Source: Parachlamydiales bacterium
GTDB taxonomy: Bacteria > Chlamydiota > Chlamydiia > Chlamydiales > JAJFMK01
DNA: 64,000 nt
Direction of reading: 5' to 3'
NCBI GenBank assembly: GCA_963765145.1
Contig: CAVXVG010000005.1
Coordinates: forward strand, 32,001 to 96,000
Shown in pieces: positions 37,300-39,306 of the stretch; positions within the stretch are counted from its first letter, which is position 1, and every line of letters begins with the position of its first letter. The position numbers and the translations under genes were made by a program. The notes below the pieces were generated by a model. The model was not told the DNA's origin and made no database searches. It saw only the letters and a list, made by a program, of their open reading frames with translations.

Positions 37300-37361
37300 C
37301 GGCACCCACGTTCGTGGGTGCATTTTTTTAATGTTTCACTTACCCAGGGTTGCGCGCTTCG
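37300..37361. repeat. Repeat E, left part (5' exon of the intron)
   Basis: CGGCACCCACGTTCGTGGGTGC..ACCCAGGGT..GCTTCG; continues at 39264. Confidence 0.75.
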
Positions 37362-39263
37362 GTGCGCCACGAGGCGCACATTATCTAGTCGATGAAAGTT
37401 CGACTAAAGAAGGGCTACCCAGCCCACTTTATACCGAGTCTTAAAACTAAGGAGGTAACGAGATGGTTTAAGCGTAGACAGGAAAATTGCAGGCCGTAAG
37501 GTGAAAACCGAGTGATTGAGCCCCGAAAACACCCTTATTGAGAGGTGCCGACGACGTCGAAGCGGTTGGAAGGCAACATCATCTAGATCGACAATGGGAA
37601 GAGATAGATGGACGTACTCCGGGGTCGAAGAGCATGGCATGTAATGAAAGATAATGTGTGAACGTGGGATCTCCTAGCACGCCTCTTCTACATAGAGAGA
37701 AGTATTGGCCGACAAGCTGAAAAAGTGAGGAAGCCGAAATAGCTGCTAGGAAGTCAGATGGAACGTAGTACCGATGAGGTGGAGTAACGACCACGGAGGG
37801 AAGGTTCCTCGGTAAATATTGCCTTAAGTAAAGGAGACGTCATGGGAACAATCGAAGCCCAGACACTGACGAGAACGAAACTGAACAAGATAGCCTTGCT
37901 ATCTAAAAGCGATCCGAAAAGAAGTTTTTCAAGTCTAATGCATCACTTCAATTACGAGTCGCTGAAAGAACGTTTCTACGAGCTCGATGGAAAGAAAGCC
38001 GTAGGAATAGATGGTGTAGATAAAGAGTCATACGCCGAGAACCTCGATCAAAATATCCTCAATCTCATCTCAAGGATGAAAACCATGTCTTATCGACCTG
38101 GACCCGTGAGAGAGGTGCTCATACCTAAGGAAGGGAAGCCAGGGGCTACCAGACCATTAGGGATAAGCAATCTGGAGGATAAGATCGTGCAGAAAATGAT
38201 GCAACAGATCCTAGAAAGCATCTACGAACCCATATTCCTGGAATGTTCCTTCGGGTTCAGGCCAGGAAAAGGTTGCCACGATGCAATAAGGGCGTTGCAA
38301 CACCACCTGTACGAGAACGAGGTCCAAACAATCATAGATATAGACCTAAAGAACTTCTTCGGAACGATCGATCACAAGATGCTGGAAGGCATTCTGAACG
38401 AGAAGATCAAGGACACAAAGTTTATGAGATACATAAACCGCATGTTCAAAGCCGGAGTACTATCAGAAGGAGATCTCAAAATGAGCGACGAAGGAGTGCC
38501 TCAGGGAAGCATATGCAGCCCTGTGCTGTCGAACGTCTTCGCTCATTATGCGATAGACTGCTGGATAGAGGAGATGGTCAAACCAAACTGTGAAGGTAGA
38601 GTTGAACTTTTTCGGTATGCAGATGACGCAGTGATATGCTGTCAGTCCGATAAGGATGCACAACGCATTAGAACAACCCTGGTGAAACGCTTAGAGAAAT
38701 ACAAGTTGAAGCTCAACGAGGAAAAGACAAAACTTGTCCCGTTTGATAAGAGACTTGTGGCCCAAGGGGTCAAGCAAGGGACCTTCGACTTTTTAGGATT
38801 TACCTTCTACTGGGGAAAGGCAACGTCAGGAAGGATCGTACCGAAACTGATGACGAAGGCCAAAACCATGAAGGCAAAACTTAAGAAAGTAACAGAATGG
38901 ATTAGGGAGGAGAGATGCAGAAAGCCACTGAAGGAGATATGGAAGACCTTTGCAGCGAAGCTAAGGGGCCACGTAAACTATTACGGAGTCTCACACAATG
39001 CAGAAAAGGTCTCCAAATTTATATATGAGGCAAGCCGCATCGTCTTCAAATGGTTGAATAGGCGTAGTCAACGCAAGAGCTTCACATGGGAGGGGTACGA
39101 GAAATACATAAAAACGCACCCTCTCCCCAAGGCGAGGATAGTGCACAAACTCTTTTAAACACCATAGTGTGGTGAATGGTATTTATCGAGAGCCCGTTGC
39201 CTTAATTGGGCACGGCGGGTTCTAACGGGGGGGAGAGCGGGTGACCGACTCTCCCTACCCTCT
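37362..39263 (+). mobile_element. Group II intron (bacterial, endonuclease-less; 3' end +/-1 nt)
   Basis: 5' GTGCG; EBS1 CGAAGCG at 37558-37564 is complementary to the exon end; domain V GAGCCCGTTGC..GCACGGCGGGTTC; domain VI with bulged A at 39257. Confidence 0.9.
37842..39158 (+). CDS. ltrA: Group II intron reverse transcriptase/maturase
   Basis: GIDG, RPLGI, SFGFRP, DLKNFF, GVPQG, RYADD, FDFLGF, LRGHVNYYG; no HNH domain. Confidence 0.95.
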   Translation: MGTIEAQTLTRTKLNKIALLSKSDPKRSFSSLMHHFNYESLKERFYELDGKKAVGIDGVDKESYAENLDQNILNLISRMKTMSYRPGPVREVLIPKEGKPGATRPLGISNLEDKIVQKMMQQILESIYEPIFLECSFGFRPGKGCHDAIRALQHHLYENEVQTIIDIDLKNFFGTIDHKMLEGILNEKIKDTKFMRYINRMFKAGVLSEGDLKMSDEGVPQGSICSPVLSNVFAHYAIDCWIEEMVKPNCEGRVELFRYADDAVICCQSDKDAQRIRTTLVKRLEKYKLKLNEEKTKLVPFDKRLVAQGVKQGTFDFLGFTFYWGKATSGRIVPKLMTKAKTMKAKLKKVTEWIREERCRKPLKEIWKTFAAKLRGHVNYYGVSHNAEKVSKFIYEASRIVFKWLNRRSQRKSFTWEGYEKYIKTHPLPKARIVHKLF

Positions 39264-39306
39264 CAGCTTACCCTGGGCTACAATCCAAAAACGCCCTTCG
39301 GGCGTT
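39264..39306. repeat. Repeat E, right part (3' exon of the intron)
   Basis: CAGCTTACCCTGGGCTACAATCC..ACGCCCTTCGGGCGT completes the CCCAGGGT/ACCCTGGG stem. Confidence 0.75.

Follow-up and report, generated by a model that had tools for sequence, protein, structure and literature searches.

The class D group II intron RmInt1 lacks an endonuclease and lives on a multicopy mobile element, ISRm2011-2, which it recognizes by base pairing. Its target is a transposase gene, whereas the target studied here is a non-coding repeat of 100 bp. Class C introns, also endonuclease-less, insert at terminators and attC sites and are described as sitting beside extragenic hairpins with little harm; they have no EBS2, form 3-4 bp at IBS1 and require a stem-loop just upstream (PMC7923331, PMC7306698, PMC8919778). 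For the intron families of T. elongatus, EBS divergence was reported to retarget introns, with waves of retrohoming into new sets of sites; these are IIB1/CL introns with endonuclease-containing proteins, and the targets named in the accessible text comprise intergenic positions, one tRNA gene and the ORFs of other introns, not REP-like repeats (PMC2882425). REP-type repeats are known as landing sites of certain IS elements, but these use DNA transposases, and guide pairing or retargeting of an intron is not shown in the accessible text of that paper, where one table row lists a group II intron of P. putida KT2440 with 2 of its 9 copies associated with REPs (PMC1525189). Class E introns such as S.me.I4 and Cl.be.I2 encode an RT/maturase without endonuclease and possess a 5-nt domain V loop and EBS1, EBS2 and EBS3; dispersed palindromic repeats go unmentioned as targets in the accessible text of the papers describing them (PMC3753933, PMC5894124, PMC3552965). 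EBS2, dispensable for splicing in classes E and F, was suggested to be kept for retrohoming (PMC3753933).

The three-guide mechanism and retargeting by EBS change (PMC2882425) are therefore already known, as are introns concealed within mobile elements (PMC7306698) and IS elements that target REPs (PMC1525189). Our search of mostly open-access literature for group II introns led by their guides into REP-like repeats returned only the table row of PMC1525189, and the accessible text of PMC8643678 and PMC12584367 mentions no repeat targets. Gene-based surveys of intron neighborhoods would be blind to non-coding repeat targets because neighborhoods are classified by genes; neither “palindrom” nor “repeat” matches in the accessible text of PMC7306698.

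The window analyzed here is a stretch of 64,000 nt from a Parachlamydiales bacterium. With a probability of about 0.75, we favor a reading in which an endonuclease-less class E-type intron retrohomed into a GTAG-type repeat by means of three repeat-matched guides and its kin were re-aimed to other repeat families. It would be an intron outside class C that lives on non-coding repeats through base pairing. New at this locus are two sister introns aimed at different repeat families that reside in the same hosts, and evidence by covariation for EBS2 within a clade of class E.

Anatomy and class of the intron

The following features define the intron:

37362..39263, + strand: group II intron, class E-type, 1902 nt (Rfam RF02005 at 37395-37634, 131 bits)
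37842..39158, + strand: intact RT/maturase ORF of 438 aa with YADD (TIGR04416, 331 bits against a cut-off of 300)
39189..39223, + strand: domain V with AGC triad and 5-nt loop UAAUU (folded with DNA parameters; triad read by eye from the sequence)
39227..39260, + strand: domain VI with a putative, bulged branch-point A at 39257, or -7 (fold; branch point placed by position)

The intron starts with GTGCG (GUGCG in the RNA) at 37362 and ends with ACCCTCT, hence in CU, at 39263. When it is excised, the rejoined flanks are identical, letter for letter, to an uninterrupted copy at C12:135(-) in the same assembly. This exact empty copy fixes both boundaries, the CU end included, and bears out the limits proposed in the initial annotation. 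Profile searches of the RT/maturase found PF00078 and PF08388 only and no endonuclease domain. The intron is the sole copy in the host assembly (2.68 Mb, 85% complete), where blastn, tblastn and a check of contig ends revealed no second copy or fragment, and viral contigs gave no match to it by protein or pattern. Judging from its sequence, the intron is complete with an intact ORF, and we infer that its mobility is active.

The RT phylogeny that had been proposed to assign the class was run with 24 rows, its references being drawn from classes D, C, ML and CL1 only. In this tree the clade joins S.me.I4 (class E), apart from classes D, C, ML and CL1, with SH-aLRT 98 and UFBoot 96, which makes the intron class E-type. 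These values hold without rows L003 and L026, two mis-picked ORFs; with both the support was 98/66. The ML and CL1 labels are those that we take these references to carry. A frameshifted RT on pRmeGR4b was taken as S.me.I4 (PMC5894124).

Like class E introns, this one combines RT and X domains without endonuclease, a UAAUU loop in domain V and IIB-type EBS1, EBS2 and EBS3, and it falls in the same Rfam D1D4-6 family. The 5-nt loop is common to classes E and F (PMC3753933). It differs from S.me.I4 in that the proteins share only 34-38% identity, and it ends in CU, not in the AY that is a general IIB consensus and not specific to class E. Most of its clade also departs from AY, with 29 CT against 8 AT ends among 37 distinct ones, an A at -7 being assumed. 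The last base is always U across the clade, and J2/3 is AAC or AGC. A single-sequence fold of 37500-37650, the region of the class E trait of an alpha' tip in DId3 and an extra bulge loop, gave a z of -1.15. RmInt1 is 28-31% identical to the study RT and lies in a separate clade of the tree.

The analogy with class C introns drawn in the initial annotation proved misleading. The study intron has three base-pairing guides of 7+5+1 bp, 7 of them at IBS1, its EBS2 covaries (28 of 41 relatives), and its protein lies outside class C in the tree; the class C intron GsI-IIC matches the study RT with an E of 2e-42. No stem-loop lies directly upstream of the site: the terminator-like hairpin A (below) ends 40 nt before it, and the insertion is within hairpin B.

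The occupied repeat and its pairing with the intron guides

The intron interrupts hairpin B of a repeat that we call family 1. The copies in the window and the guide pairings are:

37302..37321, + strand: hairpin A of family 1 with a T-run, terminator-like for the upstream operon, ending 40 nt before the intron
37343..37361, + strand: 5' half of hairpin B of family 1
39264..39286, + strand: 3' half of hairpin B of family 1, with CTAC (GTAG on the opposite strand)
39289..39307, + strand: hairpin C of family 1
33689..33787, - strand: uninterrupted family 1 copy, a loop variant without IBS1 (three hairpins, fold z -8.8)
37346..37350, + strand: IBS2 AGGGT, 5' arm of the outer stem of hairpin B (EBS2 pairing; fold of the empty copy)
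37355..37361, + strand: IBS1 CGCTTCG, across the tip loop of hairpin B (complementarity, covariation, fold)
37531..37535, + strand: EBS2 ACCCT (the zone pairs with the exon in 28 of 41 relatives; at this site the register is shifted by 2 nt)
37558..37564, + strand: EBS1 CGAAGCG (covariation with exon -1 to -6 in 44-45 relatives)
37627..37627, + strand: EBS3 G, whose partner is the first 3' exon base (Watson-Crick in 21 of 27, three pair types)
39264..39264, + strand: IBS3 C (pairing with the EBS3 column)

Family 1 is a three-hairpin, GTAG-type palindromic repeat with about 29 copies in the host assembly. A pattern for the central hairpin gave 29 matches, one of them a self-palindromic double, and the upstream hairpin accompanied 23. 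Only 1 of the 29 lies inside an ORF of at least 120 codons, although such ORFs make up 80% of the genome, and copies often form inverted pairs (contigs C9, C12, C21, C29, C30 and C36). GTAG stands at one repeat end; at the occupied copy, CTAC follows the 3' arm. The family fits the account of GTAG-type REPs given in PMC3733652, namely short, multicopy, extragenic palindromes with GTAG at one end that also occur as dimers. As for a cognate RAYT, none of the six Y1 transposase matches in the 85%-complete host assembly has a family 1 copy within 500 nt, and no Y1 match was found near the four single family 1 copies of other genomes. Exact matches to family 1 number 23 in the host assembly, 0 in two genomes of the same genus and 1-2 in 3 of 150 other genomes, and the family looks like a recent burst.

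The uninterrupted relative claimed at 33689-33787 is real. Likewise, the intron does lie in a hairpin of a dispersed REP-like repeat, as had been proposed, but not in its loop: folding of the empty copy gives a CTT loop and puts the insertion site 2 bp inside the 3' arm of the tip stem, with IBS2 in the outer stem. The occupied copy is located between convergent genes and 40 nt past the terminator-like hairpin, so the insertion was probably neutral. A genome of the same genus (G017) shares the two upstream genes but has another downstream gene and no family 1 repeat, and thus offers no orthologous empty allele. Contigs from 4 of 20 sequencing runs with intron-like sequence contained only pieces of relatives, none spanning the occupied site; the runs listed with such sequence included no RNA run. 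Elsewhere in the window, a gene for a VWA-domain protein and the uninterrupted family 1 repeat (together 33689-35737) separate folD from a sugar transferase gene; the two are adjacent in G017.

The exact complementarity between CGAAGCG and the last 7 exon nt had been noted before and is now accompanied by covariation. Relatives from genomes and metagenomes were collapsed to 56 entries by their last 25 exon bases, 45 of which were long enough in domain I. An unbiased scan of alignment columns returned the EBS1 and EBS3 pairings. For EBS1, the columns at 37558-37564 are Watson-Crick complementary to exon -1 to -6 in 43/45, 39/45, 41/45, 36/44, 35/44 and 28/44 cases, a covariation that places the EBS1/IBS1 match beyond chance. 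In a test anchored on a conserved motif, the EBS2 zone formed a run of at least 4 Watson-Crick pairs with the exon in 28 of 41 relatives, in two adjacent registers, against a mean of 2.7 and a maximum of 9 with shuffled exons. The suggested pairing of ACCCT with AGGGT as EBS2/IBS2 thus stands as to complementarity and covariation of the zone, but at this site it is 2 nt off the register of the relatives. The register is exact on three family 1 copies whose loop is 2 nt shorter.

CGCTTCG occurs 397 times in the host assembly, and 202 empty sites offer both IBS1 and IBS3 (CGCTTCG-C), 149 of them inside two repeat families. IBS2 is present at only 4 of the 202; the occupied site has it, for which the chance is 5/203 (post hoc). 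The full pattern, AGGGT-N(0-5)-CGCTTCG-C, matches four empty genomic sites, all in family 1 and three with the family spacing, and a relaxed form matches six, five of them in family 1. Together with the register on the shorter-loop copies, the four perfect empty sites indicate, at the level of sequence, guides tuned to family 1 and an intron that entered a slightly longer variant. Speaking against the favored reading, the intron is single-copy in an 85%-complete assembly though four perfect sites stand empty, and its EBS2 is out of register by 2 nt at the occupied site.

The second repeat family is larger. Its 13-nt end motif has 270 matches, and about 145 copies end in CGCTTCG-C. One of these ends is the following:

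24690..24702, + strand: “shell 1,” where a family 2 repeat ends, an empty IBS1+IBS3 site without IBS2

The initial annotation had pointed out CGCTTCG at 24694-24700 in this element. The motif is there, but the element holds no intron and is one of the approximately 145 family 2 ends, which offer IBS1 and IBS3, lack IBS2 and are never occupied in the host assembly. The idea that “shell 1” is an ORF-less intron was rejected, as there was no group II Rfam match at E up to 5 and no blastn match to the intron.

Palindromes are nested at 24030-24702, where family 2 ends surround other hairpin repeats and two tandem palindrome copies of ~177 nt. Several paralogous outer-membrane-like genes, one apparently frameshifted, occupy the - strand at 24737-27215 and 21586-22701, and the sequence at 24737-24907 recurs at ~25978-26147. 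Three identical matches to the Rfam family Acido-Lenti-1 (1335-1379, 9990-10034 and 49544-49588) each have inverted partners nearby. On contig C24, a Y1 transposase has similar hairpins on either side, which suggests that this “RNA” is a REP-type repeat here. A supposed link of Acido-Lenti-1 to the intron was dropped, none of the three window matches being at the intron; in the literature, one preprint contains both terms, unlinked.

Sister introns and the wider clade

Three metagenome loci (L055, L061 and L068) come from hosts ~90-93% identical to the host assembly in flanking DNA. L055 and L068 carry the same intron, the sister, whose RT is 96.8% identical to that of the study intron and whose sequence differs from it at 128 of 1902 nt (93% identity); at L061 only the first 84 intron bases are visible. 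In the zone from EBS2 to EBS1, 16 of 42 bases differ (38%) as opposed to 5-8% elsewhere, and EBS1, EBS2 and EBS3 have all changed. The sister lies after family 2 repeats at three distinct 5' flanks (L055, L061 and L068). One of these flanks is orthologous to the locus at 22728-24050, with what we take to be an acpS-like gene, just upstream of the element ending in “shell 1.” The sister's guide pattern matches 56 sites in the host assembly, at least 39 of them in family 2, although its EBS1 pairing is 3-4 bp only; L055 is at the foot of a 90-bp palindrome. The family 2 repeats beside L061 and L068 are missing at the orthologous places of the host assembly (C26:206469 and C29:257693), from which family 2 itself appears mobile. 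Two introns of 93% identity, each with its own guides and its own cognate target, thus occur naturally within a single host group, and this pair makes the suggestion about EBS2 in PMC3753933 testable.

The next relative, with 79% RT identity (L046 and L049), is found inside another GTAG-type hairpin with two 5' flanks, and its EBS1 and EBS2 each match over 6 bp. Since its EBS1 resembles that of the study intron, the sister's guide is probably the derived state. L046 and L049 have a common 3' flank, and the 3' flank of L055 maps to another contig; the two flanks of a metagenome locus may thus not belong together, and sites were counted by 5' flank only. In a contig piece from run X7, CGCTTCG also precedes the intron start. 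A piece from run X2 has a loose, non-palindromic 5' end whose adjacency is unsure. Close relatives are carried by several named Parachlamydiales, one of them with 70-78% DNA identity to the host assembly over ~1-kb stretches outside the intron, which suggests an environmental chlamydia as the host.

The initial annotation had proposed that this lineage lands in multicopy palindromic repeats and that homologue flanks be compared. This describes the study intron and its closest kin, but the whole clade is mixed: among members with RTs of 53-74% identity, 3 of the 8 exons that were tested occur only once in their genomes. Full copies lie right after one palindrome type in 4 of 4 cases in genome G096 and 2 of 2 in G160. 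When exons were searched in their host genomes, 5 of 8 were multicopy (G096, G462, G463, G048 and G302; 22, 30, 38, 55 as against 0 in its control, and 10 matches), and 3 gave a single match. The first four exons were chosen as repeat-looking, and only one of the next four was multicopy; the relatives in these counts are not independent samples. Three sites lie in genes of mobile elements:

L004:1927-2028: relative in a RAYT gene (weak match to NF047646 over 34 aa)
L008:280-459: relative in an IS5/IS1182-type transposase gene (weak matches)
L092:917-1498: relative in the RT gene of another intron

By a crude score for hairpins, values of at least 24 were seen at 10 of 48 clade sites, as compared with 4.4% among 250 control positions, and 33 of the 48, many of which lack a 3' exon, remained under 20. 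Hairpins are hence enriched at the sites of the clade but not required; the score overlooks long loops as well as sites that lack a 3' exon. The remaining 8 of the 56 entries fall outside this count (six with short exons, one belonging to a different class and one lying within an RT gene). Plasmids of Piscirickettsia salmonis, such as NZ_CP039041.1 (L116), hold many relatives of the RT at 56-62% identity.

How the target is probably chosen

In the reading that we prefer, an intact endonuclease-less intron would have retrohomed into one copy of the dispersed repeat, its RNA picking the site by 7 bp at EBS1, 5 bp at EBS2 and 1 bp at EBS3, all matched to family 1. Fast guide change would then have turned close relatives toward different repeat families present in the same group of hosts. 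Repeats may be favored for their many extragenic sites, often behind terminator-like hairpins, at a low cost of insertion. From the behavior of other endonuclease-less introns, reverse splicing would be expected to use opened DNA or single strands at the fork. Selection may have favored harmless sites, through guides matching multicopy, extragenic or mobile DNA.

Target choice at the study site is most likely by base pairing and not by the hairpin reading of class C, and the shape of the hairpin probably does not serve as the signal. IBS1 and IBS2 lie in paired stems and can meet the guides only once the hairpin has opened, a point against structural recognition of the class C kind at this site. 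We consider it unlikely that protein or RNA reads a DNA stem-loop and pairing only sets the register, as in class C. Strong hairpins are enriched, the G096 and G160 copies likewise lie beside a palindrome, and the sister's short EBS1 pairing, right at the foot of its palindrome, leaves some room for help from hairpin or protein. But the position of the site varies, from the tip stem (study intron) to the 3' foot (L055) and the inside of the 3' arm (L002), the targets of L001 and L012 are multicopy without a local hairpin (scores 9-10), and EBS2 covaries as in IIB introns. More improbable still is a chance retrotransposition through a short match common in repeats, with survival in a neutral site. 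An intron guided by EBS1 only would often meet a repeat, given the frequency of CGCTTCG and the 149 of 202 CGCTTCG-C sites in two families, the intron is single-copy, and many clade members reside outside repeats; yet all three guides fit family 1, none of the ~145 family 2 ends is occupied in the host assembly, and the sister introns are found repeatedly in their own repeat family. That a RAYT/IS200-type transposase moved intron and repeat together, in which case the sites would not be separate homing events, is hardly credible. The repeats do look mobile, with family 1 absent as exact matches from the two same-genus genomes and family 2 copies missing at orthologous places, and six Y1 transposase matches exist in the host assembly. 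Against this, no Y1 gene there has family 1 within 500 nt, the sister lies outside the palindrome after three different repeat variants, and guide-target covariation requires RNA-DNA recognition.

An extension of homing by repeat-matched guides, which we hold only tentatively and consider rather doubtful, is that this sub-lineage of class E parasitizes REP/REPIN-type repeats and passes from one repeat family to another within a host group by swapping its whole EBS2-EBS1-EBS3 module in one step, probably via intron recombination. It would fit the 38% divergence of the guide zone and the compensated changes in the d3 stem between sister and study intron, set against an ORF divergence of 5.6%. 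It would also fit a run X2 contig in which 37531-37617 is replaced by 83 other letters and the remainder aligns.

ORF-less relatives also occur: one of 635 nt is present in L050 (L050:1-831), and a run X2 contig has a joint that skips 37814-39170.
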